NCBI GenBank assembly: GCA_039621445.1
Contig: CP154954.1
Coordinates: 34,507,737 to 34,571,736, forward strand
Reading direction: 5' to 3'
Source: Euglena gracilis
Lineage: Eukaryota
Length of the DNA: 64,000 nt
Under the pieces are notes generated by a model. That model saw only the letters and a list, made by a program, of their open reading frames with translations, was not told the DNA's origin and ran no database searches. Of this stretch, positions 12,350 through 41,895 are shown piece after piece. The position numbers were made by a program, and so were the translations under genes. The first letter of the stretch is position 1, and the number at the start of each line of letters is the position of its first letter.

Positions 12350-12374
12350 CTTTCTGAGTGTCTATTTTTTTTCG
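12350..12374 (+). other. Euglenid spliced-leader exon sequence at the 5' end of E1
   Basis: CTTTCTGAGTGTCTATTTTTTTTCG matches the Euglena SL as I recall it. It is not followed by a GT donor; ATG follows after 18 nt. Confidence 0.9.
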
Positions 12375-13089: not shown

Positions 13090-15437
13090 TTGTGCCCTGC
13101 CAAATCGAAGGGGGGGGGGGAGTGGAAGAGGGGGGGGGCAGAAGTTTTTGAAGTCACACCCAGGACTGGGCCAAGGCCCCCCCCCAAAAAATGCACCACA
13201 ACACCCCAAATCCAGAGGATTTTGGAAAAACTCAGGACAAGGTCCACTGAGGAAAAGAAAATGGTCACCGACCTGGTGGATCAAAAAAGGGCTGCACAAA
13301 AAAAGGAGCACACCTTAGCAGCCAGTTCCAAAGCCCCGGCCAACCTGCCGACAAACTCGATTTCAGCAGCAGACGATTGGTCTGTGATGTCTTCGACGGA
13401 CGCCTCCATCTGGGGGGAATGGACCGGGTCCAGAAAAAAATACAAAAAAGTCCTCGTGGACCACTGGCTGGAGGGAATCCATATCGCCGCTTCCCCCCTG
13501 CCCCCCCACCCCCCCGGTCGCACCTGGTCTGACCTAGCGGACGACGACGTCCAGCTGCTCCTGTATCCCCCCTGCGCGCAGCCCCAAGAAGGGGGGGGGA
13601 GGGCGGCCGGCTACCGCCCCTCGGGGGGGGCCGGCGCCACGGGCATACGACGGGGTGGCATCACGCCGACGGTCACAGTCGCCCCGGCCTCTCGAGGCAG
13701 CTCTGCCACAGGGATATCCTCTGCTGCGGCGATATCGAGGAGAACCCGGGGCCTCGCCCGGGGGGACCGGCGAGCCCATCCCCCCCCCCTGGCACCCGAC
13801 GACGTCTGGGAGGAGATCTACTGGACTGGCCAACACTGGCGGTGGCTACGTCTGCTCACCCCGGCAACCGCCGGCCCCTCGTCGTCGGGGACGGCAGCAC
13901 ACCTCGCGTCGGCATGGTCCGAATTTGCGAGATGCCTCTTGTGCTCTCAGCACGTCAACCTGTCGTCCCTCCAAGGCATGCAGTCCCATCAATGCCAGGC
14001 GGGTAGGCCCATGGGCAACATTTTCTCTCTCCCCTCCATAAGAGAAGACTCGTGGCGCTGGAGGCTACAGCACTTGGAGTCCCTCCCAAACGGCGAGTGG
14101 TGGCTGGTACACTGCCAAATGTGCGGATGGTCGACTGCGACCCTGTACCCAGCGCCCATAGTTGCCCACATGCAGATCTGCCAACCACCGTCTCTCTCTG
14201 ACGTCGATAGCGACCCGGAGGATGACGATGCCGACGACGATGACTCCACGCGTCCCAGACGGGGAGCGGCCGCTCTTGGGCCCAGCAGCCCGGCACCGGC
14301 ACCCCCCGGGGCCTCACCCCCACCCCACGTAGCTGCCTCCCCCAGAGACTCACAGGGAGCCCCGCGTGGGCGGCTCCTCACCTCCACACTTCGCCGGCAG
14401 GCCGCCGGCTGCCGCCGCCTGGGGGCTCCCCCGCGGGCTCGGAGCGGCAGGGGCGCAGACATCCTCACTGCGGGAGATGTGGAGAGCAACCCCGGCCCCA
14501 CGAGCTCCGGCCGGGCTTCATCCGTTCTCCCCCCCCTCGCACCAAGCGAAGACTTCATGCTGGACACCGAGTGGTTCCAGGCGGTGGTGCGGGCTCTGTC
14601 CCCCCATAACCCGCCCACCATCGACGCTTTCGCCGAGCAAAATAACACCCAACTGGACGCCTTCTGGTCATCAAGGGAGGATGCATTCCTCCAGAATTGG
14701 AACTTGCCAAACCCGCTGTGGTGCAACCCACCCTTCTCCCTGCTCCCCCGTGTTTTGGAACACGTCCTTCGATATGGGGGCAACATCATCCTCCTCGCAC
14801 CGGAGTGGTCCACCGCGCTGGCCGGCCTGCGGCGCCTCTCCTCGCATTCCGTGACCTTACCGCGATGCCCCATCTACCGGGCCCGGGGGACAGCGCTGCT
14901 GCCAGCCCCCACGTGGTCGACCACAGCCCTACGGATATGCCACACCGGCAGCGGCAGCCCATGCGGCGCCCGGCCCCCACCGGGTCCCCACCGGGGCGCT
15001 GACCACGGACGGCAGCTCTCGCACCACGCGCACTCCCCTTACCCCCTTGCGCCGCTCCTCTCCCCTGGCCAACAACGCCTCATCATAGAACGCCGCTCCA
15101 CTCATGGCGGCGAAGTCTTCCACCTAGGGGACTATGCAGGCTGGACATTCCTATTCCACCGGAACGCCCTGTGGGACATCCGCGGTCAGACCCCCTGCTG
15201 GTGCCCTCGCTGCGGCCTGTGGCAATGGCCTTGGGACTGCCCCACGTTGCTCCCTCTTCAGTTTGCCGCCCTTAGACCACCGCTCTTACGCCCGGCTTTT
15301 CGGCTGACCCCCACCCCCCACTCCCTCCTCGACGAGCCACGGGCCCCCCTGGATCTGGCAGCGGTAGCCAACTCACTGCCAAAAAACGGCCATCGTTGTC
15401 CGCGCGGGGCAGTCCTTTCATACGGGGGGCAAACCGC
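13090..15437 (+). CDS. E1 polyprotein N-terminal part: two C2HC-type Zn fingers, 2A peptide, DNA adenine methyltransferase
   Basis: CLLC..H.C and CQMC..H...C; GRGADILTAGDVESNPGP at 14446-14499; MTase motifs. A frameshift before ~15437 is needed to reach the second 2A. Confidence 0.75.
14548..14940 (+). CDS. N6-adenine DNA methyltransferase domain (phage Dam / DIRS-MT-like)
   Basis: PTIDAFAEQNN..F...EDAFLQNW...LWCNPPFSLL....IILLAPEW; catalytic NPPF at 14725-14736. Confidence 0.85.
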
Positions 15438-18400
15438 GGACGGGGTAGCCTCCTCACCTGTGGCGATGTGGAGGAGAACCCTGGGCCAGCCAAGCGCCCG
15501 GCCTCCGGGCCACCTCATGGCGCACCGGCTGCTGCGGATGCCCGGGACCACGACCACCTCTTTCTGGACCTGGCCCACCCGGAACTTGACGCCGCGGTAG
15601 TTATCGACAGCGCGGGGCAGGAGTCCAACCTCCGGGGACGGCCCGCGCACAACCTTGTCGTGGGCACTCCCCCATGCGACATCACCCACGTCCTCCAACA
15701 AAGAATCTCGACCCTTATTTACCTGCCCTCGGCCTGCCAGCAACCTGTCTTTGACACTTTGGCAGATGCCATCAACGCATACACGCACGCACCCTCGGAC
15801 GCTGCTCTATTCAGCGTCCTATCCTTCCCGAAACTCGTCCTCCGACCGGTGTCGACTACCAAACCACCGCCGGCAGCGGAGCTGGAGTCCATCCTGCTGA
15901 GGCGTACCAAACTGTTCCGCGAGGGGGACTACGGCACCCTTCTGACAGAGGCACTAAAGGACGCACAGGCTCGACACTCCGTCGTGGAAACCAGGGCGGA
16001 AAAACGCTCAAGAACGCAGCCGACCGCCCTCAGTGAGGCCATCACGAGACGTGTGCGCACCCTCACCTCGCAGAAGGGGCGTCCGCGAAGGCAGTCCAGC
16101 TACTGCTCTCTGAGGGCGCGCACCAACCGGATGATCCGGATGTCTGGGCTGCCCTGGAGAAGTTGCACCCCAGCGGCAGACAGGTGGACACCAACCGCCT
16201 CCCGCGACATGTTAAGCCCTTCCCTGAGAACCACATCCCGGAATGGGAGGACAGACTGAAGGAGGCCATCCGCCGTTTCCCACGGGGTTCCGCCGCAGGC
16301 CCGTCGGGCCTGCGGCCCAGCCACCTCCAAGACTGTCTTCGTAGGCCGGGCCGGGGAGCCAAGCTGATCACAGCCCTTGCGCGGCTGACCCAGTTCTGGA
16401 TTGACGGCCAGCTACCACCGCACCACGCCGCGGCCTGGTGCTGCGCGAATCTGACCCCACTCCGCAAGAAGGACAACGGGGTGCGGCCAGTGGCGGTTGG
16501 GGAGACCATCCGCCGCCTGGTAGGGAAAACGCTGCTCCGCTCGCCCCCACCCAGGTCGGGGTTGGGGTACGGAACGCCGCCGAGGCCGTTGCCCTGGGCA
16601 TGCAGCACCTCGTGCTTCAGCTGGGGGACACCTCACCCTGGGTTTCCCTCCAGGTGGACTACTCCAATGCTTTCAACACAGTTGACCGAGGGGCGATCCT
16701 CACAGAGGCCGAGACCCGTACACCCAGTCTGTTCAATTTCCTGAGGTTTGCATACAGCGGGCCCGTCCCCCTCTTCTGCGGGGGCCGCACCATCCTTTCC
16801 CAGAGGGGCACACACCAGGGCTGCCCTCTGGGCCCCATCGGGTTCACCCTGGCGCTGCAGCCGCTGCTGGACCAGATAACCAGGGACGGCCAGCTGCTAT
16901 GGAACAGCTGGTACCTGGACGACGGCCTCCTGGTCGGAACCCTCGACAGGATTGAACACTGCCTCCGTTTCCTGCTGCAAGAGTCCCACCGCATCGGCCT
17001 TGGCCTCAACCTACAGAAGTGCGTCATGTGGGGCCCGGGAGCGCGGAGTGCACCCAGTTGCGACAGATTGCAAGTGGTCCCTTGGTCACCAGGGGAAGGC
17101 ATTACCGTGCTCGGAATCCCAGTAGACCACCCCGCGTCCTCCGACACCACCAAGAAAGCGTGGGCGGATGCTGCCGCCAAGATCGAGAAGGCCTCATCTA
17201 CCATAACGTCCCTCACCGACGCCCAGGTGGCACATCACCTTCTGCGGAGCTGTCTAGACGGCTGCAAAGTGAACCACCTCCTACGCGCGTCCGACTCGTA
17301 TGGCAGCCAAGATAAGGTTACAGGTTGCTCGGAGGTCATCATGAACGCCTTCGAGGACATACTGGGCACGGCACTGAACCCACAACAGCGGACACAAGCG
17401 TCGCTGCCCCTATCCAGCGGGGGCTGCGGCCTGCGCGTCCCGTCCTGCACTCAGCCCGCAGCCAGGATCTCCTGCCTTGCAGACTTCTACTCAGACGGGG
17501 CCAGGCGCGTGGGTGTGCCCGACTACGCATCCGGCCTGCAGCTACCCCTGGTCGCGCCCGTCCTGGACGACCTCCGGGGCAGGCTAGGAGCCAACCATGC
17601 CACGGTCACCACCTTCCTCCACAACCCACAACGACTCGCCTCCGCGGACCAAGAACCCCGGAGGCAAAAGTGGTGGAACCACGAGCTGGGCAAAAAGGCG
17701 ATGGATGGCCTTGTGGACCAGGCCCGGCCCCGCGACCAGAACCGCCTCCTTGAACAAGCCACGGGGTTCGGACACGGGTGGATGGCGGCCACCCCTTCCA
17801 ACAACTCCCACACCACCTTCTCTAGCGAGGAGTACACCTTGGGACTGAAGTGGTGGTTAGGGCTTCCGGTGCTGGAGGACGTCAGCCAGCCGTGCACAGG
17901 GTGCGGCCAGCCTCTGGACCAGGAAGGCGACCACCTGCTTTGCTGCCGCAGGAACAACTTCTCAGCCCGGCACAACGCTGTTCAGGACGCTCTGTTTCTA
18001 ACCTTGTCCAACAGCGGTCACCGGGTGCAGAAGGAAGTTTCCCTGCCAACGGCCCGAGACAGTCACCTACGCCCGGCGGACCTCCTGCTGGACTGCTGGT
18101 CCGAGGGGAAGCCGACGGCGCTGGACGTTACCGTCTGCCACGGATGGCAAGCGGCAGAACACACAGCGACCCGCGAACGCTGGAGATCCTTCCTGAAGAG
18201 GAGGGAGGACGCCAAAAAGCAGAAATACAACGTGCCATGTCAGCAAGCAGGGTGGGGCTTCACACCTTTCGCCCTCGGGACATGGGGTGGCATGGGACCG
18301 GAAACGGCCAAGACACTGAGCAGAGTGGCCAAACGCGCATCGTCCTGGCAACAGGGCGCTGAGCGCGAAACCAAGCAAGCGGAAATCTACCAAAATGTGG

Positions 18401-18459
18401 CCATCGCCTTGCTCCGAGAAGTGTTCCACCTCTTACAACCCAAGCACGTCCTCCGTTAA
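15438..18459 (+). CDS. E1 2A + reverse transcriptase + CCHC + restriction-like endonuclease (two frameshifts, near 16070 and 16545)
   Basis: GRGSLLTCGDVEENPGP; GSAAGPSGLRP; RPVAVGETIRRL; DYSNAFN; QGCPLGP; WYLDD; CTGC..GDHLLCC..RHN; RPADLLL..LDVTV. Confidence 0.9.
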
Positions 18460-18842
18460 CCACGGGAGGAGCCACCCCAAAAAACAACAACACACACACA
18501 ACACAACCACACACCCACACCCACACACGCACACACACCCACACCCACACACACACACACGCACACCAACACACCACAACCATCCGCACGCCCTCCCGCC
18601 CGCGCCAAGCAGGCCGCCTCACCCCTACCGTCAGCCACCCCAGCCGTCAGCCACTCCAGCCGTCCCTCTGCGCCTTATATTGAAGATGGGCCTTGCCCGT
18701 TTTCCTCCTGCCCTGCCCTGCACCACCTGTATATACTTTTAACCTCCTCCGGACCTTCAAACCCAGTAGGCTGTGCCACTCGTCGGTGGATTCGGTTCGC
18801 CCCACCACCGCTATCCGGCTAAGTCGGCCCCTCCCAGCTCAA

Positions 18843-20726
18843 ACTACACGCCAGCTGGAGGAGGTTGTACATTTGGTCCTTGAAAAGGGACCACCCATTG
18901 GTGTTGACCTGAATACCAACAAATGCACCCTTTGGGGGCCAGCCTTCCAACCCGACCGTTTTCTCTTCCTGGAGGGGTTGCAACGCATCCCCGTAACTCC
19001 ATACATTCCTGGTTCCGGAATCAAGTCCCTCGGGGTTCCAATTTGCCATCCGGAGGACGGGACATTTGCCGAACGTGTGTGGTTTGGGCGGTGCGAAGAA
19101 GCTATGAAGGCGTGTTCAGCCTTGCAGAAGGTGCCTTCTGCGCACATCCACTTCACCATTCTAAGGCTGTGTCTGGACGCGTGCAAGGTTAACGACCTGT
19201 TGAGGACTACTCCAATTGGCCTTGCAACCATGCAGTGCACGCTGCTAAGCAAAACCCTGCGGAATACCGCCAGCATCATTGTCGGGCGGCCGCTGGAAGA
19301 GGACCAGTGGCGCCAGGCCACCTTGCCTGTCCGGTTGGGTGGGTTGGGCATCCGGGACCCTACCACGGAGCGCCCGATCGCCAGGTGGGCCGCCACACTT
19401 GACTTTCTTGTTCGCGGCGACCGCGTCCTCGACTTGCCACCCATCTGTGGGATGAACCCCCTACCTTCGGAATTTACCGCCCAGGTGGAGGCCATCAAGG
19501 GTCTATGTGAGCTCCCACCGATTGCAAAGGCCTTTGTTGAGGACCCAAAAAGTCCGGAGATGCTGCCTCAAGAAATGACGGCACGGAAATTCTGGGGACA
19601 ACAGTGTGCAAAAGCCCGACAGCAAGCTCTGTACAACTCACTCACGGGTAGCGATAAACTGAAAATGGCATGTCAGATGAAGCCACATGCTATGGCTTGG
19701 GCCTCCGTTACGCCGTCAGCCGCCACAAGGACGCTCATACCAACAAGGGAATTCCAGGCCCTGATGCAATGGTCCCTGGGTGCTCCGGTTGTTTCGCCTT
19801 CAGATGCCTGTCCCGGGTGCCCTCGGTGCCACAACCCCTTGGACGCAAGAGGCCATCACCTCGTTTGTTGCCACCGGAACAACATTGTTCGGCGACACGG
19901 GGCGGTGCAGTCCTACATCCTTGGGCTGGCCCAAAAGGCAGGTTTCCCGGCCAGAAGAGAGGAGAGTGCCCCTGATGGTTCCCGCCCGGGCGACGTATTT
20001 GTGATGCGATATGATGCAAACGGTCCGGCGGCAATCGATGTGACCGTTCGCCACCCCCTTGCACCTTCCCGCGTACGGCCAGGATTGGAAGACCTTGGTA
20101 AATGGCATGAGAGCCAGGAGGAAGACAAAATCAAAAAAGTATGGAGACGGTTGTAAGCGCAGAGGGTGGACGTTCATCCCCTTTGTCCTCGATTGCTACG
20201 GAGGAATGGGGGAGGCAGCGCTTGCCTTTGTTGGAAACTGTGTTCACTTGCTTGCGGGACAACATGACGCATGGGAGAGGCGAGCAGCGGAGGCAAACTG
20301 CTGGCAGGGCCTCAGCATGGCCCTTGCCAGAGAACTGGCGAAACAGCTCGTGTGGGGCCAATGCCCTGACGACCTCAACGAAGGAGGTGGCATGGACACT
20401 CACCACCCATACAGCACATGAGCTACCCCTTCGGGCTCCACTATCCCGAAGCAACCCCTCCGCCTCCGGCGGTGCTTCCTGAACTAGCGGAGGCCTGGAA
20501 ACGGCCCGCCACGCACAGCCAAGGGGGCAGCGAATCGGGACCATGCCATGATATATAAGGAATGCCCCCTGCAACAACCAAGAACCAATGCAGCACGTCG
20601 GAGCTGCAACGACGCCCCCGAGGAGCCGCAGGGCGTGAAAGACAGCTGAAGCCGGAATCACCGGCCCACCCGTCATCAACACCCAGACCTTAAACGGCAC
20701 CGAGCCCTGCCACCTCCCCATTGCCT
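18843..20726 (+). mobile_element. E2a: 5'-truncated near-identical copy of the 3' part of E2
   Basis: Matches 22875-24766 apart from a 9-bp deletion (ACAAGTGTA), one extra A near 20135 and a few substitutions. Confidence 0.9.
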
Positions 20727-23700
20727 CCGCCGGGCACCAGCCATTACAATTTCTTCGCAAAAATCACCCGGAACAGCCCACTCAGAGTCCCCTCAGGGGG
20801 GTTTTTGAGGTCGCCGAGTCCGAATATCCGCTCACACCGACGTGGTGGAGCCGCCAGAGCCGGCATTCGTCAAGACCGTCCTGGTAGAGAGCGAAGCCTC
20901 AAGCTCCTCGACCCCTGCGGAGAATGGGCATTGGCGGATTCTCCAAGCCACGCAAAGCGGTCAAGCACAGGGTTTTTGAGGTCGCTGAGTTCAATTATCC
21001 TCTCGGATGGACGTGGTGGAGCCGGCAGAACGGGCATTTGTCAAATCCTTGGACCTTTTGGGAAGCGGAACGGCCTTCCCCGCAAGCTCCATGCCTCCGC
21101 TCACCCTCGGACCGGCAGAGGGGACAGCCTGCTGACATCAGGGGATGTCGAATCAAACCCAGGCCCGGGTCCACCAACCTTCCCTGAAGCGAACAACACC
21201 TTGGTGCCAATGCTGTATGACTTTGAACAAAACGCAGAGGGTACAATTGGCTTCCTCATGGCGACAACCATGCCTCCGTTGCAGCCCCCGCCGCAAGTAT
21301 CCCCTTCCTCACAAGATGCCAGGGAGCTTCAAGACCTGCTGCAACGGCTCATCAGCCGGCCACCGCTGGAGGCCACCCTCCCCGCAACAAATAGCCCAGG
21401 GCCCACAAGAGGACCCAGTGCGTTGGATGGGGTGGACGACGTTGAAATGGGGGTTCAATATCTACCCGGCATGAAAACTGGCACTGCCCTTCAATCCCCG
21501 TGCCCGGATCTCTCCCCGTCGTGGATGGAAATATCCTCGGATCCAAGGGGCACTGTTTCCACCATACCAAAGTGAGCCCTTCCCGCGGTCTGTGACGTGT
21601 ACTCCTGCCTTCTCCGGGCGTTCAACGAGAGGCCCACCTGGGAAACATTACATGGCCTGTGGGCTTTCCCCAAGGCTGTGTTGGCACCTTTGGGAAAGGG
21701 TGGACGCGGCCATTGGGCCCGGTTGGGAAGGGTCATCCGCGGCAGAGCGGAAGCTTATCTAAAACGAACGGTGGCAGACAGTTGGAAGGACTCTGCCCGC
21801 TTACCCCAAATGGGTCAACCTGTTCGCACCAGGGGCCAAGCCCGACGTGAGCAAGAAGTGCAAGAAGAAGCATTCGTACGCCGCCTTGAACGTTTGGTGA
21901 GCAAGGGTGCCGTTGGCAAGGCATGCCAGGTCCTGACTTCGGACGGCGTGCAAGATGACAAACACCCCGTTGTGCGCCAACGGTTGAACGATCTTCACCC
22001 GGCTGAGGAACCACCTGGCCGGGGCCCCACGGATAAACGGGTTCTGTTTCCGCCACCTGGAGACGAGAACGAGAGGAGGGACAGGCTTTCCATGGTCCGC
22101 AAAGCAGTGTTCAGTTTCGGAAAAGAATCGGCAGCAGGGCCATCGGGCCTAAAGCCGGACCACATTAAGGACATGCTTAGCAGGGAAGCTGGGGGACAGG
22201 CCGAGACACTGCTTGAGGGCCTCACGACCTTCGTCTTCTGCTGCATCAACACGGGATGGCCCGCCGGTGTGGCTGAAATCCTCACATCGGCACGCCTCAC
22301 GGCGCTGCGAAAGGTCAAACCGGCCACGACAGTGGATGACGCTGGGAACCTCACACCCAATGGGCAGGATCCCGCACAAGAAGGGACTCGGCCCATTGCT
22401 TCCGGAGAATGCTTGCGCCGACTGGTGGGCAAGGTGCTGATGCGCCAACCTGCCGTGCAAAAGTTTACCCAAGATGGGATGCCCGGGCAGTTTGGGGTGG
22501 GTTGTCCTGACGCCTGTGGCCTGATCGGCATGGGCCTCCAACACCTCGTGACCAGCCTCCATCATGGAGGCTCTCGTGACTGGGGAGTCTTGCAATTGGA
22601 CTTCAGGAACGCATTCAACTGGATCCGGAGGGATAACCTTCTCGAAGCAGCACGAGAACGATGTCCAGAAATGGTGACGTGGCTGGAGACCTGTTATGCA
22701 GAACACTCGAGCCTCTTTTTGAGCGACACATCCCTCCGAAGCCAGTCGGGGGTTCAGCAAGGCGATCCTTGTGGACCGGCTGCCTTTGCCATGGCAATTC
22801 AGAGTCTGGTGGAGGAAATCCATGGCGTTTGCGGATGGCAGGCCTGGTACCTGGACGATGCCCACATCATGGGGACTACACGCCAGCTGGAGGAGGTTGT
22901 ACATTTGGTCCTTGAAAAGGGACCACCCATTGGTGTTGACCTGAATATCAACAAATGCACCCTTTGGGGGCCAGCCTTCCAACCCGACCGTTTTCTCTTC
23001 CTGGAGGGGACAAGTGTATTGCAACGCATCCCCGTAACTCCATACATTCCTGGTTCCGGAATAAAGTCCCTCGGGGTTCCAATTTGCCATCCGGAGGACG
23101 GGACATTTGCCGAACGTGTGTGGTTTGGGCGGTGCGAAGAAGCTATGAAGGCGTGTTCAGCCTTGCAGAAGGTGCCTTCTGCGCACATCCAGTTCACCAT
23201 TCTAAGGCTGTGTCTGGACGCGTGCAAGGTTAACGACCTGTTGAGGACTACTCCAATTGGCCTTGCAACCATGCAGTGCACGCTGCTGAGCAAAACCCTG
23301 CGGAATACCGCCAGCATCATTGTCGGGCGGCCGCTGGAAGAGGACCAGTGGCGCCAGGCCACCTTGCCTGTCCGGTTGGGTGGGTTGGGCATCCGGGACC
23401 CTACCACGGAGCGCCCGATCGCCAGGTGGGCCGCCACACTTGACTTTCTTGTTCGCGGCGACCGCGTCCTCGACTTGCCACCCATCTGTGGGATGAACCC
23501 CCTACCTTCGGAATTTACCGCCCAGGTGGAGGCCATCAAGGGTCTATGTGAGCTCCCACCGATTGCAAAGGCCTTTGTTGAGGACCCAAAAAGTCCGGAG
23601 ATGCTGCCTCAAGAAATGACGGCACAGAAATTCTGGGGACAACAGTGTGCAAAGGCCCGACAGCAAGCTCTGTACAACTCACTCACGGGTAGCGATAAAC

Positions 23701-28707: not shown

Positions 28708-31700
28708 TTGAGAATTTTGTGCCGTCCTCACCACAAGGGCAAGAGCAAGAATGCCAAAATGGTCGAAGGCCGCAGCCCCCCGTGGTTCCAGCACCAGCGC
28801 AATCCTCGATGAACGCTGATACGCTGCAAGTCACTCCCTTCTCGCAACCTTGCCCACCAATGCAGCCATCTTGGGAAGAAATTTCCCAAGACACTCGGGG
28901 CACGTTGGTCCATATCCCACGGGGAGCGTTGCGAAACGTTGGGCTCGCCTTCTGCAGCACCCTCAGTCGCTTTGTGTCAAAGCCAGGATGGGAGACCCTA
29001 CACGCACTTTGGTGCTTCCCAAAAGCTGTGCTTGCTCCATTGAAGCGGAGCGGGAAAAGCCATTGGGCTGCAGTTGGACGGAAAATTACTGAGAGAGCCA
29101 ATGCCTACCTCAACCGGTCCACAGAAGATTCGTGGGATGAGACTCGCCAAATTCGCGATGCACAAAACCCAAAGAAGAGAACACGAAGTCAGACAAAAAA
29201 TTTCGATGCTGAAAGCCAAGAAAGATTGTGCAACCGTGTTCAAAGCCTTGTCAGCCATGGGGCGGTCAGTAAAGCCTGCCGCATGCTGACTTCTGATGGA
29301 ATCCAAGATGCAGACGACCCGCTAATCTTGGAACGGTTGGCTGCCTTGCACCCTCCTGAACCCCAACCTGGAAGGCAAAATCTGCCTCCGGACTTCCCTC
29401 GCCTCGAATTCGATCTCAGTGAAGATGCAACCAGGGAGCGCCTAATTGAAATACGGAAAGCAGTCATGTCTTTCCCGAAGGAGTCCTCACCAGGACCGTC
29501 TGGACTTCGTCCAGATCATCTTAAAGACATGCTCTCTGATCCCCTGGGGACACAATCAGAACAACTCCTCACAATTTTGGACCAATTCGTCCGAACATGT
29601 TTGACAAACGGAATCCACAACTCTGCGGCATGGATTTTCGCTGGTGCCCGTTTGACTCCTCTTCGAAAACCCTGCAATCCAAGCGAAAACCTTGATGAGC
29701 TTGGCAATACCAACCCCATTCCTGACCCAAAGAAGGATGGCACGCGACCAATTGCAGCTGGGGAATGCCTGCGCCGATTGGTGGGCAAATATTTGATGAG
29801 GCACCCCAAAATCAGGGACCGCCTTAAAGAACTGCAGCCACTACAATGCGGTGTAGGGGTCCAGGGGGCATGTGAACTCATTGCTATGGGACTGCAGCAA
29901 GAAGTAAATCACCTGCACATGCAACAGGACAGCACCTGGGCTTTGTTACAGGTAGATTTCAGCAATGCTTTTAATTGCGTAAAAAGAAAGACAGTCCTTG
30001 CTGAAGTGGCTAAACGCTGCCCGGAGGCGTACGTTTGGTTCGAGAGTTGCTACGCCGAACACAGCCCGCTCTTTTGTGGGTCATCACACCTTCGGAGTGC
30101 CTCTGGCGTACAACAAGGGGACCCTTGTGGCCCAGCCGGATTCGCCTTGGCGTTGCAATCTCTCGTCGAGTCCTTGCAAGACGTGGTGCCACTGCAATTG
30201 TGTTATTTGGATGATGGACACATCCTGGGAACCCTCCCACAATTACATGCAGCAATTACAGAAATTCAACGACAGGGGACGCTACTAGGCATACACCTCA
30301 ACGCAAAAAAATGCCGCATGTGGGGCCCTGCAGCAACAGAAGCCAATCGTGCTGAAATGCCGCCAAACAGCCCACTTCGTGCAGTCCCAATCGTGAACTA
30401 CTCCCCTAATTCTGGTATACGGGCCCTGGGAATCTCGGTATGCCATCCACAAAGCGGTGGCTTTGCGGGGGAAGTGTGGGCTGAACGTGCAACAGGTGTG
30501 CAGAAAGCTTGCCGGGCCCTTTTGAACCTGCCGCAAGCCCATATTCAGTTCTGTCTCTTACGAACCTGCCTAGATGCATGCAAAGTTAATGACCTCATGC
30601 GTGCAACAGAACTGGGGCAGGCAAATGACGCATGTGCTCTGTTGACCAAAGAAATCAGGAACACAATGAGCAACATTGTTGGATCCCCAATCGATGACAA
30701 CCAATGGGCTCAGGCCACCCTACCCGTGCGTCATGGCGGACTCGGAATTCGGGACCCATCACTGGAACGTCTCCCAGCACGTATATCCGGCATTGTGACG
30801 TTTGTCAGCAATGGCAGACGCACCCTGGGCCTGGCAGACCGAGGAGTACCGAAAGACACTGCGGAGTGCCTGTCCTCTGCCAACTCCATCCTCGAAGGAA
30901 CTCCCCCAACGCAAACATGGGCCGCGGATGTATCACTGCTGAACGAAGCCCAAAGCCCTCACATTCAACAGAAGTGGTGGGGTGAATGCTTTGCGAAACA
31001 ACGACAAAAAGTATTATCCTCTAACCTTCACGGTCAAGACGCCGTCCGGTTCGCAAGCCAACAGCAGCCCCACGCAATGGCCTGGGCTTCTGTCACACCA
31101 TCCTCTGGACTGAAAACATTGGTCGCTTCTGCCGAATTCAAAGGATTTCTAAAGTGGTCACTGGGAGCACCAGTTTGTCCACCAACGGGATCAACGTGCC
31201 CACGCTGCACCAAGCCAATGGACAACCTGGGTAATCACCTTGTATGCTGCAGCTCAAATGGCATCACGCGGCGACATGGTGCAATCCAGGACTTTGTGTT
31301 CCAACTGGCACATGATGCTGGATTTACTGCAAAAAAAGAACAAGGAGGTCCAGAGAGAACACGCCCGGGCGATGTCCTCATCAGCAGACTTGACGCCAAT
31401 GGTCCTGGAGCAGTGGATATCACAGTGAGACACACAGCAGCACCGTACAGACCGTTGCGTGACACAGCTGAACTAACTGAATGGTATGAACGCCAAGAGA
31501 AGGAAAAACATTCAAAATATGACGCCACCTGTGGGAGGATGGGATGGACCTGCATTCCATTTGTTGTTGACTGCTATGGCGGCCTAGGCCAAGAAGCGCT
31601 AACCTTAATGTCAACACTGATGAAACTTCTCCTCGGTCAACAAGATGCATGGTCAAAAGGCAAAACTGAAGCCGACACATGGCAACTTCTATCAATAACT

Positions 31701-31802
31701 ATTGCGCGAGAGATCGCGCGACAAGTAATCTGGGGACGGTATGCAGGCAACGACACAGATCCAGAAGTAACCAACACCATACACCAGCCGTATTGTCTGT
31801 AA
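28680..31802 (+). CDS. E3 reverse transcriptase + CCHC + RLE (uninterrupted 1040 codons)
   Basis: SSPGPSGLRP; DFSNAFN; GVQQGDP; YLDD; CPRC..NHLVCC..RRH; RPGDV..VDITV. Confidence 0.93.
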   Translation: MCAPQGQGLIENFVPSSPQGQEQECQNGRRPQPPVVPAPAQSSMNADTLQVTPFSQPCPPMQPSWEEISQDTRGTLVHIPRGALRNVGLAFCSTLSRFVSKPGWETLHALWCFPKAVLAPLKRSGKSHWAAVGRKITERANAYLNRSTEDSWDETRQIRDAQNPKKRTRSQTKNFDAESQERLCNRVQSLVSHGAVSKACRMLTSDGIQDADDPLILERLAALHPPEPQPGRQNLPPDFPRLEFDLSEDATRERLIEIRKAVMSFPKESSPGPSGLRPDHLKDMLSDPLGTQSEQLLTILDQFVRTCLTNGIHNSAAWIFAGARLTPLRKPCNPSENLDELGNTNPIPDPKKDGTRPIAAGECLRRLVGKYLMRHPKIRDRLKELQPLQCGVGVQGACELIAMGLQQEVNHLHMQQDSTWALLQVDFSNAFNCVKRKTVLAEVAKRCPEAYVWFESCYAEHSPLFCGSSHLRSASGVQQGDPCGPAGFALALQSLVESLQDVVPLQLCYLDDGHILGTLPQLHAAITEIQRQGTLLGIHLNAKKCRMWGPAATEANRAEMPPNSPLRAVPIVNYSPNSGIRALGISVCHPQSGGFAGEVWAERATGVQKACRALLNLPQAHIQFCLLRTCLDACKVNDLMRATELGQANDACALLTKEIRNTMSNIVGSPIDDNQWAQATLPVRHGGLGIRDPSLERLPARISGIVTFVSNGRRTLGLADRGVPKDTAECLSSANSILEGTPPTQTWAADVSLLNEAQSPHIQQKWWGECFAKQRQKVLSSNLHGQDAVRFASQQQPHAMAWASVTPSSGLKTLVASAEFKGFLKWSLGAPVCPPTGSTCPRCTKPMDNLGNHLVCCSSNGITRRHGAIQDFVFQLAHDAGFTAKKEQGGPERTRPGDVLISRLDANGPGAVDITVRHTAAPYRPLRDTAELTEWYERQEKEKHSKYDATCGRMGWTCIPFVVDCYGGLGQEALTLMSTLMKLLLGQQDAWSKGKTEADTWQLLSITIAREIARQVIWGRYAGNDTDPEVTNTIHQPYCL

Positions 31803-32401
31803 AGAAGACCACGACGACCCCTAGACACAGAACAAACAATTGTCCTTAAACCATCCACAACTCGTCAAAAAAGTAAACAACAGTACCCAACCATCAGCAA
31901 CCTGTGTCTCACATTGGCAAGAGAAGTGGCCCGCCAGCTGACTTGAGGAACAGTGGCGGAGCCATCTGGAACGGTGGATCCCACCACCCATTGCCCATAT
32001 GAAACGGAGTGAGCAATTTGACCACAGGGCCGAAGACGCCATGACACACCAACCGTACGCATAACCAACCACGAGACTAATTTAACCAAAAAACAAGCAA
32101 ATCACACCTTGCAACGAATGGACCAAGTCTACAAAGACGTCCAAACCCTTACCTCACCGAAAACAGAGCCTTCCCTGCGCCAACTCCCCAAAACCAAAAC
32201 TTGTCGCAGCCACAACCTCAACACCCAACAGTCCCCATGGCCGTTCCATTGAACCTTCCCTGCCGCTGTACACTTTCCTCTCACACTCGCTATCCCCCCT
32301 CCGAACTGTGCCCTTCACCGCCGTTCTACTTCACCCTCGCCTCTCCCCCCTCCCACCTTGAGAACTTGCTATGTGCATTACTCTCACCCGCACAGGACTT
32401 C

Positions 32402-35400
32402 GGATTTTGAGTGTTCGAGGGTGCGAGGCTATACACAACGAAGGAGTGTGGGTCGAGCGGTGAGAGCAAGGGCAAAGCCCAAGCAGAGAGTGATGGGTGG
32501 AGAGGTGTGAAGTGTGCATGCGCGGTGTTCTCCGGCTTTGTGGCTCCGGAAGGCTGGTGCAACGGGGAGCATTTTCACCTTACGAGTTCAGGATCATACG
32601 ATCTGTGGCTCTTTCGGCCAACCGCAGCTGCCGTGCAACTGCACGGGCCAGTGTGATGGCCAAGTTTTCGGTCAATTCCTGAAATTTTCGTTGTTTGGCT
32701 GTTCCAGAACATGAATTGGTCGCGAGGCGTAGGACATCGCGTAGGAGTTTGGAGGCTGCCGGTCCTGTGCACCCCCAGGGGTTAAATGCAGCCCCAATGT
32801 ACTCCCACTGGTGGCGGGCGCACCGTTCTTCAGCTTGTGTTCTCTTGTGCATTTCAGCGTCTGGTAGAGTACGCTGAACTCGGGTCAAGTTCAGAGGCCA
32901 CCGTGATGGGGCCAGCGGGTGTTCAATGGTGACATCAACAGCGAGATGCTTCCCTTTGTTCCACCCCAGGAGGAGGAGATCAGCGTCACGGGTGCCACCC
33001 TCGCATCCCTGTTCTTTGCGAAGAGTGATGCCTGCGCGTTGGCACAGGTCAAAAATGGCGTAACGAACACAGTTGTGCCTTTCTGTTATGCCATTCCTTC
33101 TGCAAGCCAGGAGGTGATCGCCAAATGGATCGACTGCCTCAGCACACAGGGGGCACAGAAGCATGTCCGTTGTTGGGATCAGGGGTAAGCCAGTCCAGAA
33201 GCGTAGAAGCAGTCTGTATTCGTCCGGAGCTAGGACGGTATTCACCGACCTGGATGGTAAGACGGTCATCCAATTTTGAAGGAAGGCAGAGGACTGGCAA
33301 CGAAGCCTGGCAATGTCCCGAAGAGGTGCACCGTCCTCCAAAGTTGCCACGCGAACGGCGTGGAAACGTTCGGCCCACCACGATTGAGTGGAGTGATCTG
33401 GGGTGGAACAGGCCAAGGAAGAAGGGTTGGCGATCCAGGAAGCCAATGGTTCGCTGTGCGGGCCCAAGGTGTCACGAGCCAGTTGGGCGACGGGGATGGT
33501 ATCTGGTAGCGGGAGCATGCGCCAGGGCGGAGGGATATTGAAGCCGGGCGCTCGTTGGGAAAAACCCACGCAAGCAGCCAAACGGGCAGCTGGTCTTTCC
33601 AACTGGGGGTCTGTGATGCCCCACCCTGTCTTATTGCACGGCAAGGTGATTTGTTTCCAATGCAAGGTAGACTGGGGTGCCCCCACAATGTCACAGGCAG
33701 CACTCCGGATGGAGTCGGAGATCACTTGCACACTGTGCGTCCCGGAGGAAATGTTTGTCTGACGCAGAAGGTGCGTGACGCGGCAGCCATCCAGAAAGTT
33801 GCGCAGCAAACAATGTTGGAGTTGGGGATCCGGCAGTTGTTGGAGGCGCGAGATGGTAGCTTGAAATTTTTCGGATGCCTTGGCCCACGTGGTGTCAGAA
33901 AAGGTGCAGTCACCAGGATAGTCGCAAGGTACCCCTAGGCACAGGATGCCACTGCCCGGTCCCCATGGGGTGACCGGGAAGTTTTGTGCAAGGTGGTCGG
34001 GAGGCAGGATCTGAAGAGCCGGGGGTTTCGGAGTGGCACAGGGTACACCTGGTCCCCATAAGGCACACTTGGAGGGGTTGAGGTGGAGCCCAACGCTGCC
34101 AAGTGCCGTGGCCAGAGAAGCCGTGAAAGGCAGAACATCAACGGCAGGGCCGATGACAGTACCGTCGTCCAAGTACCACGCCTGCCACACCGTGTTGGGC
34201 AAATTGGCCGAAGCCTGTTGCAGCGCCTGATGGAGACCCAAGGCAAAGGCAATGGGCCCACATGTGTCCCCTTGATGGACACCGGTCCTGCTGTGACACA
34301 GCACGTCACCCTGGCAAAGAAGTGGGACGTCTTCTCCGTAGGAGAATCGGAGCCAGTTGTAAAGGGACGGGCAGAGGTCCAGGGATGCCTGCAGGAACGC
34401 GGATCGATCAATGGTGTTGAAGGCGTTGGAAACGTCGGCCTGGAAAACCACCCAATCGCCATCCACTGGCAGAGACGCCAGTGCGGCCTGTACCGCCAAC
34501 CCGACTGTCTCCGCACCGTAGCGCACCCCCACTCCCAATTGCTGCGGGAACAGCTGAGACGTTTCCGCTTTGCACTGCGGGTGTCGCAACAGCATTTTCC
34601 CAATGAAGCGCCGCAGGCAATCCCCCACGGCGATCGGCCGTAGACCGCCACCCTTTTTGGTAAGTGGGATCAGGTTTGACGTACCAAAAAAGATCGAGGC
34701 TTTTGCTGGCAAAGAGCCCTCCCAGGCCTTCTGAGCCAGGGACCCCAAGGCTATGTGTAGCGGGCCTGTCCCGGCCTCACGGTCCAACAAGTCCCGAAGG
34801 TCTTGTGGACGGAGACCAGATGGGCCGGGGGCGCTGCCACGGGGGAAAGAGGCTGCAGCTTCTTGCACAATTGAAGACCAGTTGAAGTCAGTAGTTTGTG
34901 GAGAATTGCCTGCCCCAGGCAGCGGCAAACTGGCTCGTAATGGAGACCCCTGTGGATGGAGCGACAGGAGCTTCTGCATCACTGCTGGATCCCCGGGCGA
35001 TGCCAGGGGCAAAGAGGTGAGAGCGTCCACGGCCTTGCCGAGGGCCCCTTCTTCAACGAGTCCGCGCACCCGGTCCATAAGACCACGTGCCACAGAGTCA
35101 GAAGTAGAGCCAGAGGGGTTGGCGCGGGTGGTGGGCCGCTTTCGCCGTCTGTCAGAGCGAAGCGGATCAAACAGAGCGGCAAACTCTCCTGCGTGCCACT
35201 GTGCCAGTCTCTTTTCCAGGAGGCAATGCAATGTGTGTTGATGGGAAGACGAGGTTTTGGGAGGGGCACCAAGAACGAGTTTCGGAAAAATGAACAGGCG
35301 GTGTAGAGCTTCCCAGGTTTGGGCTTGGAGAAAGGTCTGAATGGAGGATGCAAGGGCGTCACAAATTGCGTGACGACTTGGCAGTGGGATACGGCGAAGA

Positions 35401-38433: not shown

Positions 38434-41400
38434 TTATTTAGTTTGAGTAGGGAGAGTGAGAGCCTCGGGAGGAGTTGTCGCCATTCGTGGATGGTTCAGT
38501 GTAGAAGCACCACACGAGTTGTTTGATATCTCTTTGGCCAGTGTCAGGGAGAGGCCTTGCCAGACCTCTGCTTCGGCTTGGCGTTGCTGCCAACCTTCCC
38601 GCTGCCCTAGCAGGGCTTTCAGGAGGGTGGACATCAGTGTGCGGCCTTCCTGCCCCAGTCCCCCGAAACAGTCAAGCACAAAGGCATTAAGCCGCCATCC
38701 CCGCCTTGCACAGGCAGCATCATATTTCCGGTGTTTTTCGGCTTCTTGCCTCTCCTGCCAAGCTTGCAGTTGGGTGGAACGACCTAGAGGGTTGCTTGGA
38801 ATTTGGGTGTGGCGAATGGTGACGTCGATTGCCACGGGTCCGTCACTGTCCAGTCGAGGAATAAAAACATCACCGGGGCGGGTGTTGTCATCAGCCCGTT
38901 GCTCTTTCTTGGCTTGGAATCCACATCGTTGCGCAAGGGAAGTGAGAAAGTCTTGGACAGCCGTGTGCCGCTTGTAAAGGTTGTTGAATTTGCAGCACAA
39001 TAGGTGATGACCCGTAACATCCACATTCCCTTGGCATTTGGGAAAGAGCAAGCCAGTGGTGGAGGCAACGTCGCTCAATGGCATACCAATGTTCCACCGA
39101 AGGAGACAGCGGAATTCGGCTGAAGGCAAGAGGGTGCGTGTGGCAGTGCTCGGTGTGGCTGCAGCCCACGCCATCGCATGGGGCTGGCATTGGCTCGCGA
39201 ACCGGACTTGATCCTGTGGCGGCAATTGTCGGGTAAGTAGCGCTTGTCGTGCAGTGGAAAATTGGCCGTTCCACCATTTCTGAGATGTGTGGGGGCTCTG
39301 AGCGTTTTGGATTAGAGACAAGTCCTCCAGCCATTGTGGAAGGGGAGCTGTGGTTCCGAGGGTGGTGGAAGCGTCTCGCAAACAATCTAGGGTGTCTGCA
39401 GGATCACGGGGGAACACTGATGGGATTCCCAGTGTCTCCGGCCCCCAGCGAAAGTAATCAATGATGCCGGCAATTCGAGCGGGCAAGCGGATGTGGCTGG
39501 GGTCTGAAAGGCCAAGTCCTCCCAAGCGAATTGGTAGGCAGATTTGCTCCCATTGTTGTGGTGTGCACGGGCCGCCAAGCAATCCTTCAAAACAGTTCCG
39601 CAGGATTGTGCTGAAAGCTGCACACTCCGGGCGCCCCTGGGTGTATGAGGTTGCTCGTAGAAGGTCGTTTACCTTACCAGAGGTGAGGCAATAACGTAAA
39701 ATAGTGAATTGGAGGTGCGCCTGGGGTAGCTTGGAAAGAGATTGGCACGCCTCCATAACACCGTTCACACGTTTCCTCCAAATCTGACGGGCAAATGCAT
39801 CGCCTTCTGGATGGCACAGTGGGACCCCGAGAACTTTGAGGCCTGAGTCCTTCAGAAACGGCACAATGGGTACTTGGCGAAGTGGGCTGTCGCCCGGGAT
39901 TCCATCTGGCAGTGTGCCTCCGCAACTGGAGGTGAAGGCCGGGCCCCACAGATTGCACTTCGCAAGGTTCACCACCAATCCCCGTTTGCCTGCTTCATGG
40001 ATCAGTGTGGAGAGTGCTGTGTGAAGCTGCATCGGCGAACCCAAGAGATGGCCATCGTCCAAGTACCACCCCTGCCATTCGACTTTGGTGGACAGCTCCT
40101 CCAGGACATCCTGCAGTCCCCAAGCAAATAGCGCTGGGCCACACGGGTCTCCTTGTTGGGCGCCTCTGGCGGAAGTGAGCATTTGCTTCCCACAAAAAAG
40201 TGTGGAATGTTGGCTGTAGCAGCTCTCGAGCCAGGGCATCGCAGGGGGACATCGGCGACGGACACTGTCCAAAGCGGACCCGCGGAGGAGGCTGTTGAAC
40301 GCGTTGCTCAAGTCTATTTGCAGAAGGCCCCACCGATCCTCCTTCTTGCGGAAGAGGTCATCGGTCATCTGTTGCTGGCCAATTGCGGTGAGGCTACAAG
40401 CATTGCGGACCCCTACACCGCTTTGCAAGGGACAGAGGTCTTTGAGGGTCTGTGTGATGGCTTGGTGGTGCATGAGTACCTTGGCCACAAGGCGTCTGAG
40501 GCACTCCCCTGCGGCGATTGGTCGGGTTCCCTCTCCAGCTGCAGCTGCGCCATTACCGTTGTTTGGGGAGGGGGCGGCCTTTCGGAGCGGTGTGAGTGTG
40601 GCAGATGCAAGAATTGGTGCCATGTGAGGATGGACACCCTTTGAAATGCAGTCGCAAATGAAGAGATCCAAGGTTTCCAACAGGTCTTCCGCCCGGGAGC
40701 CTGGCAGGTCAGCGAGCATGCTCCGCAGATGGTCTGGCCGCAGGCCGGAGGGGCCTGCGGCGGAGTCCTTCGGGAAAGAGCAGATAGCCTTGCGGAGGGC
40801 CACCGTCCTTTCGCGGAGAGATTCCGCATCCCGGGGGAACTGCAATTTGTGGGAGGGATCCCAAGGACCAAAGCCGGGAGGTTCCTCATGAGGATGGAGG
40901 GCCTGAAGTTGCGCCATCACATTTGGGTCAGAAGAATCACGAACCCCATCAGAGGTCAGCACGCGGCAGGCTTTCGAGATTGCCCCATGTCCCACGAGAG
41001 TGCTCACACGATTCACCATTCGCTCCGTATCCAAAGCTTCTTCCCTTGCAGAAGCGGACCTAGTTCGCGGGGCTGGAGGCGGTAAGTCAGGCAACACAGA
41101 CTCCTCCCAACTATCAACGACCGGCCGTTGGAGGTACAACTTGGCGCGCTCAGCGACCTTGCGGCCGACCTGTGCCCAATGGGCCTTTCCACCGCGCTTC
41201 AGTGGGCAAAGCACTGCTTTTGGAAATGCCCAAAGATGGTGCAGGGTCCGCCATCAAGGATTTGCGTTAAAATTCCGGAGGAGGGTGATGAAGGTGCACG
41301 TGACCTGCACAACGGCACCACGAGGGATGTGGACCAGCGTCGGCCGGGTGTCCAAACCAATTTCTTCAAAAGAAGGCGACAGGGCTGCCCCGTCATCTGG

Positions 41401-41895
41401 GAATGCACTCGGGGAAACAGAGCAAGATACTCGGCGTTGTGTGCTGTCCTGTGAATTAGGCAACATGGCCACGTCCCCTTGGGACTGCGAGACAGGTTGG
41501 CCAGGGTTCCTTACTCCGGAACCGGCAGAAGGTATGGTACATGCTTGTTGAGGTTGTTGAGCGGCCGTCGATGAAGAGACAGCAGCTGGCTGAATGGACG
41601 GTTGCAATGGGGTTGGTGGTTGTGGTGACAGTAAAGTGGCGGGGTGGACTGTCCCCAGCAAGGGCAGGAAGGAATCAGCCTGGTGGCCGAGCAGCCATTG
41701 ACCACCGGCATCAAGGCCGGAGGCAGTCGGTGGGAAAGGGAGTTGGGGGAAAACCGGAAATGCGTTCATCGGAAACCAGGAGCCAGGGGCCGCGCCTGTT
41801 TGCGAGCATTGGGAGGCTGCCGACATTTCTACATCGTCGTTTGGGCCTGGGTTGGCCTCCACATCCCCGCATGTCAGGGCTTCTTCTCCCCTCCC
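38434..41895 (-). CDS. E5 2A + reverse transcriptase + RLE (frameshifted near 41214-41260)
   Basis: SAAGPSGLRP; DLSNAFN; GAQQGDP; WYLDD; LPIRLGGLG; RPGDV..IDVTI. The first Cys of the CCHC knuckle appears mutated (FPKC). Confidence 0.88.

Follow-up and report, generated by a model that had tools for sequence, protein, structure and literature searches.

We analyzed a 64,000-nt stretch of the Euglena gracilis genome (NCBI GenBank assembly GCA_039621445.1, contig CP154954.1, positions 34,507,737 to 34,571,736 of the forward strand; hereafter the window), in which four families of non-long-terminal-repeat (non-LTR) retrotransposons carry motifs of the 2A type ahead of their reverse transcriptase (RT). 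These motifs are probably StopGo (2A) sites of a clade of R2-like long interspersed nuclear elements (LINEs) with a restriction-like endonuclease (RLE), and would yield separate proteins from one reading frame. The window was searched with a six-frame regular expression and with a GRG-anchored one, and all eight 2A or 2A-like motifs reported by a first-pass annotation were recovered exactly at their positions, seven of the eight starting with GRG as described there. A ninth motif, absent from that annotation, was found just 5' of the range it had covered. The nine motifs are as follows:

13701-13754, plus strand: E1 2A number 1, ..CCGDIEENPGP, canonical, non-GRG (the ninth motif)
14446-14499, plus strand: E1 2A number 2, GRGADILTAGDVESNPGP, GRG type, canonical
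15438-15488, plus strand: E1 2A number 3, GRGSLLTCGDVEENPGP, GRG type, canonical
21114-21167, plus strand: E2 2A, GRGDSLLTSGDVESNPGP, GRG type, canonical
27049-27102, plus strand: E3 2A-like a, GRGDSLTTMGDVETNPGS, GRG type, degenerate NPGS (GDVETNPGS at 27079)
27457-27510, plus strand: E3 2A-like b, GRGERITTHGDVQTQPGP, GRG type, degenerate (GDVQTQPGP at 27487)
28126-28179, plus strand: E3 2A-like c, ..LCGDVHLEPGP, non-GRG, degenerate (GDVHLEPGP at 28156)
28366-28419, plus strand: E3 2A d, GRGKSLASCGDIESNPGP, GRG type, canonical
41895-41842, minus strand: E5 2A, GRGEEALTCGDVEANPGP, GRG type, canonical

The canonical form, D[VI]ExNPGP, occurs six times, at 13731-13754, 14476-14499, 15465-15488, 21144-21167, and 28396-28419 on the plus strand and at 41865-41842 on the minus strand. 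Five of the eight motifs annotated earlier are canonical, and the other three are degenerate, all of them in one open reading frame (ORF) of E3. The six D.E.NPGP matches compare with a mean of 0.005 and a largest value of 1 in 200 dinucleotide-preserving shuffles, which excludes a chance origin, and three other NPGP strings in the window (5850, 5988, and 55788) lack the D.E. context. Each family that keeps the region 5' of the RT (E1, E2, E3, and E5) retains at least one intact canonical motif there, as had been claimed, and the whole pre-RT region is missing in E4 and in its relative E0 (10276-12355). These data confirmed that the recurrent 2A architecture in the window is real and richer than first reported.

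Self-comparison of the window and tblastn placed the motifs within the following elements:

10276-12355, minus strand: E0, an E4-like fragment
12351-18810, plus strand: E1, three 2As, several frame changes
18843-20726, plus strand: E2', a 5'-truncated E2 copy, 98.7% identical to 22875-24766, without the 2A region
20727 to about 24990, plus strand: E2, 5'-truncated, one 2A, one in-frame stop
25005 to about 32395, plus strand: E3, four 2A-type motifs, three of them decayed
35600-32406, minus strand: E4, RT-RLE only, no pre-RT region and no 2A; first in-frame Met in ..CPDMQPDL...
36686-35620, minus strand: mini-element, about 1 kb, internally deleted
37853-36756, minus strand: E4', a 5'-truncated copy of E4
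43024 to about 38000, minus strand: E5, one 2A, stops and a frame change

The RT-RLE proteins of E1 to E5 share about 30-50% identity, indicating that they represent distinct, old families. When the pre-RT regions of E1, E2, E3, and E5 were compared by tblastn, they matched one another only at the 2A peptides, over 21-29 aa with 62-73% identity; the one exception was E3 versus E5, in which about 60-80 aa can be aligned across the last 2A and its downstream flank. The rest of the cargo between the motifs cannot be aligned from family to family, and the six canonical motifs use differing synonymous codons for nearly every conserved residue (G, D, V/I, E, P, G, and P). The retention of the peptide through synonymous changes, next to cargo that has diverged beyond alignment, indicates that selection acts on the peptide itself. 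The third 2A of E1 (15438-15488) shares 17 of 18 residues with the laboratory 2A sequence EGRGSLLTCGDVEENPGP, which we take to be the "T2A" of an insect virus. This laboratory sequence recurs in published papers as a "2A sequence" and, in one such use, as far as the accessible text goes, separates proteins.

The same architecture was found in uninterrupted ORFs outside the window. Of the database relatives of the E3 RT, the best is P0001 (1736 aa). Both P0001 and P0272, a member of the same cluster (2000 aa, contig of 6.6 kb), are organized in the order slot 1, 2A, zinc finger, 2A, Dam-like domain (NPPF), 2A, and RT-RLE. Between residues 306-592 of P0001 and positions 14428-15312 of E1 the identity is 39% (E 4e-50), and the zinc-finger slot of P0001 has counterparts in both E1 (14011-14181) and E3 (27046-27540). 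Three 2As were counted in P0006, two in P0010, and four in P0013, and one slot of P0006 contains an SLBP-type RNA-binding domain (E 2.6e-20). In all five of these proteins (P0001, P0272, P0006, P0010, and P0013), the 2A lies within one ORF that is coding on both sides. The pattern D.E.NPGP is present in seven of the 120 listed relatives of the E3 RT, and in six of the 24 that have more than 150 residues 5' of the start of the RT protein. When candidates of 1,100-3,500 aa were searched with the zinc-finger slot of P0272 (residues 486-607), P0001 was the only match, and it belongs to the same cluster. The motifs bound exchangeable slots, and the slot order is the same in intact relatives, which bears out the earlier proposal that the 2As create modular cargo slots.

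These intact relatives bear on a rival explanation, namely that the polyproteins are chimeras in which nested insertions or assembly joins between unrelated elements have put Dam, zinc-finger, and other ORFs 5' of LINE RTs, the 2As having come with the inserts. Nested and tandem elements are densely packed in the window, and the association of E. gracilis Dam proteins with LINE-like RTs has been ascribed, in the available text of one report (10.64898/2026.05.21.726589), to domain transfer, nested insertions, or assembly artefacts. We nevertheless consider a chimeric origin very improbable, as other data sets contain this order in ORFs of 1,736 and 2,000 aa without interruption, and the order Dam, 2A, RT is found in P0123, P0136, and P0145. 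Further, E1 is the sister of the Dam-bearing P0123 in the RT tree (support 98), and the start codon and the spliced-leader sequence described below mark the beginning of the cargo and not that of the RT.

The third slot of E1 is predicted to encode a Dam-like adenine-N6 methyltransferase, which may act on DNA, RNA, or a hybrid. Both the NPPF and DAF motifs are present, and among 48 sequences N76 is invariant, with P77, P78, F79, D42, and F44 nearly so. An AlphaFold (AF2) model of the slot has a pLDDT above 95 for residues 20-150, and its closest solved folds are PCIF1 (Foldseek E 3e-4, Z 9.6), KsgA/Erm/DIMT1 (Z about 8.1-8.4), T4 Dam (8.1), and EcoDam (8.0). The assignment of an S-adenosylmethionine-dependent methyltransferase fold rests on the conservation of NPPF, the confident model, and these adenine-N6 methyltransferase neighbors. 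Four of the nine slot relatives scanned exceeded the Pfam Dam cut-off (P0145, 31.5; P0147, 31.3; P0168, 28.7; and P0123, 28.3), and searches of PDB sequences with the slot gave chance-level matches only, with the single sequence and with a profile alike.

To place the slot among its relatives, a full HMMER pass over 1.84 billion cluster representatives (E ≤0.001) was carried out, and 628 relatives were obtained. Among the best 150 of the 628 (representatives of 50%-identity clusters), 48 contain a 2A-type motif, with up to five per protein. Of the 96 proteins that have 25 residues or more ahead of the Dam domain, 26 have a 2A that ends at its start, and of the 27 that continue for more than 200 residues after the domain, 21 have a 2A there. 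No 2A occurs in the other 102 of the best 150, many of which are short fragments, and some 2A-less relatives may belong to the Dam elements of the DIRS/LTR type (10.64898/2026.05.21.726589). An RT 31-35% identical to that of E3 is present in seven of the 20 long relatives, two of which have the full RLE motif.

The enzyme type of the carriers was examined from their RT ORFs. RVT_1 was detected in five long ORFs (E1 to E5; E 4e-11 to 5e-14), all of which end in a C..C...H...C / RH / (R/K)P.D...D.T module. A 20-member RT-RLE profile matched R2 proteins (9nl3_A, E 5e-31; 9dou_A, E 8e-31) over profile positions 227-957, with the CCHC motif and the nuclease included, whereas the same profile matched L1 ORF2p at about 1e-8 and in the RT part only. 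The invariant profile columns include C858, H868, C872, R880, H881, D913, D928, and K958, and the regular expression of the RLE motif also matches P0001, P0006, P0013, P0123, and P0136. No match to the apurinic/apyrimidinic endonuclease (APE) domain (Exo_endo_phos) was obtained in any ORF scanned, at E up to 0.01. Because the alignment with R2 extends through the RT and the nuclease and no APE domain was found, the carriers are classed by sequence as RLE-type (R2-superfamily) non-LTR retrotransposons, not APE-type. The E3 RT as a single sequence gave no match in the PDB, and a comparison with Protein Atlas gave RVT_1 clusters only.

A FastTree phylogeny of the RT-RLE region was built from 83 rows, comprising the five RTs of the window, 75 relatives that span most of the protein, and three Dam-bearing proteins; 45 listed relatives of partial coverage were excluded. 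All 11 rows bearing a 2A, E1, E2, E3, and E5 included, fell into one clade of 20 rows (support 95), which also holds E4, two more 2A-less rows with a long N-terminus, and six rows too short to score. The other 60 rows have no 2A, though 12 of them have long N-termini. The relatives that lack 2As, E4 and the sister group of 60 rows, consist of bare or fused RT-RLE proteins, so the 2As would seem to have served to append further proteins upstream in a one-ORF element, in analogy to the ORF1/ORF2 arrangement. The earlier proposal that 2A replaces the ORF1/ORF2 split therefore stands as an analogy and not as a replacement, because RLE-type LINEs are treated, in the accessible part of PMC3708506, as plain single-ORF elements without an ORF1.

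The tree also bears on the possibility that the motifs are functionless remnants of a viral or retroelement sequence captured long ago, and that only the young age of the copies has kept them conserved. This explanation would agree with the fact that all copies in the window are dead and that E3 shows motif decay. We find it hardly credible, however, as the families are old, with branch lengths of 0.5-1 changes per site in addition to the low protein identity, and the motifs persist with synonymous changes despite cargo that cannot be aligned and are kept in the 48 of the best 150 Dam-slot representatives.

The coding parts of the 2A-bearing elements, with the 3' end of E1, are as follows:

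12393-13700, plus strand: E1 slot 1, polyprotein ATG at 12393, coiled-coil-like basic N-terminus; frames 3, 1, 3 in the window copy
13755-14445, plus strand: E1 slot 2, two C-x2-C-x14-H-x3-C zinc-finger-like motifs in the translation
14500-15437, plus strand: E1 slot 3, predicted Dam-like N6-adenine methyltransferase (NPPF, DAF) with a conserved Cys/Trp-rich C-terminal part
15489-18459, plus strand: E1 RT-RLE, from RVT_1 and tblastn; frames 3, 2, 1 in the window copy
18460-18810, plus strand: E1 3' untranslated region (UTR), CA-rich run, with a 46-nt core (18764-18809) at its end
25050-27048, plus strand: E3 slot 1, ATG at 25050, about 665 codons, several frame changes in the window copy
27103-27456, plus strand: E3 slot 2, zinc-finger-like; P0001 residues 190-339 match 27046-27540 at 32% identity (E 2e-10)
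27511-28125, plus strand: E3 slot 3, a 205-aa cargo without NPPF
28420-31802, plus strand: E3 RT-RLE; frame 1 changes to frame 3 within 28545-28860, that is, between the last 2A and the RT
42991-41896, minus strand: E5 slot 1, ATG at 42991-42989, stop at codon 5, frame change in the window copy
41841-38434, minus strand: E5 RT-RLE, one in-frame stop near 41251-41253

The first slot of E1, which contains an (AC)n run at 12697-12729, has an N-terminus similar to those of E3 and E5, and its second slot matches residues 229-286 of P0001 and 205-323 of P0010. Pfam gave just a weak zf-C2H2_12 match on E1 slot 2 (E 0.021) and nothing above chance on slots 1 and 2, E3 slot 3, and E5 slot 1. E2 has no ATG 5' of its 2A, and its RT-RLE runs to a stop at 24461, with an in-frame TGA at 21573-21575; its 3' UTR probably extends to a copy of the core at 24940-24985.

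The 2A lies inside the reading frame in E2 and E5, which are continuous but for one stop each, and in E1 only after the indels seen in contigs from sequencing runs are applied; in E3 the frame shifts after the last 2A. No slippery heptamer was seen in the 72-nt frame overlap of E3 (28635-28707), and as the 2A and the RT share one frame in E2 and E5, the E3 change is probably a copy-specific indel, judging from the sequence, and not a programmed frameshift. The use of TGA as a sense codon was rejected: the stops of E2 and E5 are at non-homologous positions, and contigs of three runs (X1, X4, and X15) have a sense codon where E2 has its stop (21573).

To examine the E1 frames, Logan contigs of two DNA runs (X1 and X4; coded organisms A and B) were compared with positions 12300-22870. 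Relative to the window, the contigs show single-letter indels in E1 at 13590, 13780, and 15402, an indel of two letters at 16067, and an inserted stretch at 16538 (30 letters between joint sides that share one position, counted as 31); within slot 1, indels of 1-2 nt were seen at 12617, 13110, 13129, and 13590. By frame arithmetic, the five indels at 13590, 13780, 15402, 16067, and 16538 bring the three E1 2As, the zinc-finger slot, the Dam slot, and the RT into one frame, the first 2A being in frame with its neighbors after those at 13590 and 13780. The window was found wholly or partly in 20 of the 24 sequencing runs listed, with at least half of its words in 14 (17 studies). No RNA run containing the window sequence was among those listed; X15 and X16, which are guessed to be RNA, gave short, low-depth contigs on parts of E1, of which no listed piece crosses a 2A, so that they are uninformative on expression.

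Several observations weigh against the StopGo reading. All 2A-bearing copies of the window are defective: at least five frame changes interrupt E1, a 5' truncation and a stop affect E2, the frame is shifted several times in E3, and E5 combines stops with a frame change. The proposed mechanism therefore applies to the families, not to the copies in the window. Even with the contigs, the indels at 13590 and 13780 fall in 9-nt homopolymers, where assembly errors are possible (those at 15402, 16067, and 16538 do not), and four further indels and 175 further substitutions mean that the whole E1-family frame cannot be claimed as open. Departures from NPGP, with the exception of E to Q, ablate activity according to the available text of PMC5733566 and PMC3708506, and three of the four E3 motifs depart. 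The match of E1 slot 3 to Pfam Dam (PF05869; E 4.4e-6, 26.9 bits) falls below the gathering cut-off of 28.1. The FastTree phylogeny is quick and midpoint-rooted, so that one origin of the 2As with later losses is a reading and not a result, and on its 2A side the N-terminus is too short for scoring in nine of 23 rows. Finally, recent surveys, as far as their accessible text goes, describe 580 RT-containing contigs with 2As, of which about 79% are non-LTR-like and 43 were highly active (10.64898/2026.09.24.754024), and assign to a "reduction" class 59% of the retrotransposon 2A-like peptides of the ORF2p type and 70% of those of the ORF1p type (PMC13405545).

These last figures, with so many peptides in a class of reduced abundance and so few contigs highly active, would fit an alternative in which the motifs are mainly translational attenuators, a stall or drop-off keeping RT-RLE low with no need for discrete upstream proteins; down-regulation of the downstream product was indeed proposed by Odon 2013 (PMC3708506, in the part available). 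We judge attenuation as the main function to be unlikely, though less so than the two explanations weighed above. The slots are folded, conserved domains (Dam-like, SLBP in P0006, and zinc fingers) with 2As on both sides, which argues for discrete products, and the peptides are canonical and T2A-like; moreover, attenuation and separation are not mutually exclusive.

The 5' ends of the elements are linked to the spliced leader of the host. The 24 nt at 12351-12374 on the plus strand and at 43024-43001 on the minus strand are identical to the last 24 nt of the E. gracilis spliced-leader primer (sequence from PMC5654406), and the leader ends 18 nt before the ATG of E1 (12393) and 9 nt before that of E5. 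Two partial leader copies form the 5' end of E3 (25005-25040, plus strand), before the ATG at 25050; the mini-element starts with a partial leader (36683-36674, minus strand), and a truncated piece stands at the 5' junction of E4' (37861-37852, minus strand). The flanks upstream of the leader vary, being E0 for E1, an inverted core for E5, and a 3' UTR with core for E3, and no remainder of the leader was found after the 3' ends of the elements. The leader sequence points to a euglenid host, and the simplest reading of its position is that the genomic copies were reverse-transcribed from trans-spliced mRNAs.

CRE, SLACS, and CZAR are RLE-type LINEs of trypanosomatids that sit in spliced-leader RNA genes. 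The elements of the window resemble them in being RLE-type, in their euglenozoan host, and in their physical link to the spliced-leader sequence, but differ in that the whole leader (24 of 24 nt) precedes an own 5' UTR and ATG and looks like part of a copied trans-spliced mRNA. Fixed-site insertion inside spliced-leader RNA genes, the habit of the CRE clade, was not seen at the window junctions, and since the leader is complete, its flanks differ, and no 3' remainder is left, insertion of the CRE/SLACS type inside leader genes fits poorly. The earlier placement of the elements in a CRE-like clade is borne out in the general sense that they are RLE-type, and membership of the CRE clade in particular would be tentative. 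The CRE/SLACS/CZAR clade is named in the introduction of PMC3708506.

We propose that a full-length element would be one frame of about 2,000 codons, starting 9-18 nt after the spliced-leader sequence, and that its leader-capped mRNA would be translated from the first AUG. The ribosome would free the chain after each ...NPG and resume at the next Pro, giving several proteins per mRNA, and the upstream products would be in excess over the RT. In the E1 family and P0272, the predicted products would be a coiled-coil/basic first protein with an ORF1-like role, a small C2HC zinc-finger protein, a Dam-like methyltransferase, and, as the last product, the RT-RLE, which would perform target-primed reverse transcription. 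The other families keep the 2A punctuation with different or fewer cargoes, with one 2A in E2 and E5 and four, three of them decayed, in E3.

Trypanosomes and euglenids both belong to the Euglenozoa, so that the host group overlaps with that of the L1Tc/ingi elements. 2A sequences in L1Tc/ingi of trypanosomes and in CR1, L2, Crack, and Rex1 of animals are described by Odon 2013 (PMC3708506, accessible text). Those APE-type LINEs are alike in having D(V/I)ExNPGP in the N-terminal part of a long LINE ORF, and that paper, in the portion available, already proposed that 2A frees upstream functions from a single ORF. They differ in usually having one 2A near the N-terminus, whereas the RLE-type elements described here have one to four in the window and up to five in relatives, where the sites bound domains. 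The earlier statement that LINE 2As are typically single fits part of the literature, with at most three 2As per eukaryotic gene in the available text of PMC12338488, which also describes class B 2As in dinoflagellates; two 2026 preprints, however, in their accessible parts, describe large numbers of non-LTR-like contigs with 2As.

In comparison with R2 (9nl3 and 9dou, R2Tg; 8gh6/8ibw, R2Bm), the elements share the RT, the CCHC motif, and the PD-(D/E)xK-type nuclease, with about 730 positions aligned. They differ in having no 28S target, no direct single-sequence match, and cargo upstream, and in that the zinc fingers are in a separate, 2A-delimited protein and not at the N-terminus of the RT protein. 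Dam is known from DIRS and Ty3-like LTR elements (10.64898/2026.05.21.726589, available text), which have in common with E1 an element-borne methyltransferase-like domain with an Asn-Pro-Pro pocket; there, however, Dam belongs to DIRS/LTR elements, and "2A-like," NPGP, and skipping do not appear in the main text as far as it was accessible. SymbioLINE-DNMT (PMC5890265, in part) likewise has its own DNA-methyltransferase-like domain as an epigenetic tool, but is APE-type with two ORFs and a cytosine methyltransferase. In contrast to both, the Dam-like domain of E1 is a 2A-bounded slot of an RLE LINE.

The available text of PMC13405545 reports ORF2p-like proteins with 2As and an N-terminal deubiquitinase cargo (Dualen-type), and a Symbiodinium ORF2p with an OTU domain. 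Like our data, the 2A surveys (PMC12338488; PMC13405545; 10.64898/2026.09.24.754024) find 2A-like peptides in many non-LTR-like contigs, "distributed" along ORFs; unlike them, our data concern an RLE clade, Dam and zinc-finger slots, a euglenid host, and a spliced leader, none of which is described in the accessible survey texts, although the supplements may list such sequences. Literature searches for RLE with 2A-like, for adenine methyltransferase with non-LTR and 2A, and for Euglena with 2A found the arrangement undescribed among the papers listed, with the same proviso for the survey supplements. A 2A in a LINE is already ordinary by recent surveys, and what is new here is the clade, the number of sites, the cargo, and the host.

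LINE 2As have so far been treated as a single N-terminal oddity of APE-type elements, and here they form a multi-protein cassette in the RLE (R2-like) branch, to which the literature ascribes a single ORF without accessory proteins. If the sites work, a one-ORF retrotransposon could gain or exchange accessory proteins without a second initiation site, and the 2A strategy would be useful where host mRNAs arise by spliced-leader trans-splicing. The arrangement offers a concrete explanation for the E. gracilis Dam proteins that branch with LINE-like RTs in the accessible text of 10.64898/2026.05.21.726589, and non-LTR elements would join the retroelements carrying an adenine methyltransferase. 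The window and its relatives also provide a natural series of diverged 2As, canonical and decayed, for deriving the sequence rules of StopGo. Tentatively, and with more doubt than conviction, we suggest that an old R2-like LINE clade in euglenids, and probably in other protists, may use picornavirus-style expression with up to five StopGo sites, N6-methyladenine (6mA) marking of the new copy or intermediate for landing in "active" chromatin, swapping of plug-in cargo (Dam, SLBP, and others), and exchange of 2As with RNA viruses, to which the close likeness of one slot boundary to the T2A peptide would then point.

The 46-nt core is invariant at 18764-18809, 24940-24985, and 43036-43081 on the plus strand and at 35665-35620 and 36753-36708 on the minus strand. 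In E1, E2, E4', and the mini-element it comes after the 3' UTR, and it lies 10-35 nt ahead of the leader-led 5' end of the next element in the window and in at least 10-14 contigs of the two DNA runs. The depth of the core bin was 25,000-35,000, compared with 100-2,000 for the LINE bodies. Two readings fit the core: a 3' terminus common to all these families, or one half of a target site that is itself repeated. Rfam gave no match to it at E up to 10, and its fold is not unusual (z -0.34); a role as a 5' leader or promoter was abandoned in view of the 3' UTR alignments. Loose contig ends at 20726, the joint of E2' and E2, continue into the sequence from 24767 onward.

The elements form two convergent head-to-tail arrays, one at 12351-32395 on the plus strand (E1, E2', E2, and E3) and one at 43024-32406 on the minus strand (E4, the mini-element, E4', and E5). 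Truncated copies stand directly before fuller copies of the same family (E2'/E2 and E4'/mini-element/E4), which suggests insertion beside existing copies. The mini-element begins with a leader-like sequence and lacks an RT, and its 3' UTR is 99.6% identical to 24766-25002 (the E2-type 3' end); it has the appearance of a derivative that arose by internal deletion and that may be non-autonomous. More RT/RLE fragments of the same superfamily, all on the minus strand, were found at 3851-5454, 7871-8302, and 10276-12355, and the E4-like ones reach 79-92% protein identity with E4.

Outside the elements, a degenerate satellite (49902-54037 and 44840-48123) has a unit of about 43-47 bp (G-run, CAGCCAAAATTTCCAACCGTAATTCT, A-run) in about 88 copies, and tandem arrays with units of 163 bp and 71 bp occur at 45787-47211 and 48501-49422, respectively. 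An interstitial telomere-like repeat, GGTTAG x10, is present at 58356-58415. Four matches to tRNA models (5665-5878 and 7475-7682), two of them within a 138-bp tandem duplication, may be tRNA-derived repeats.

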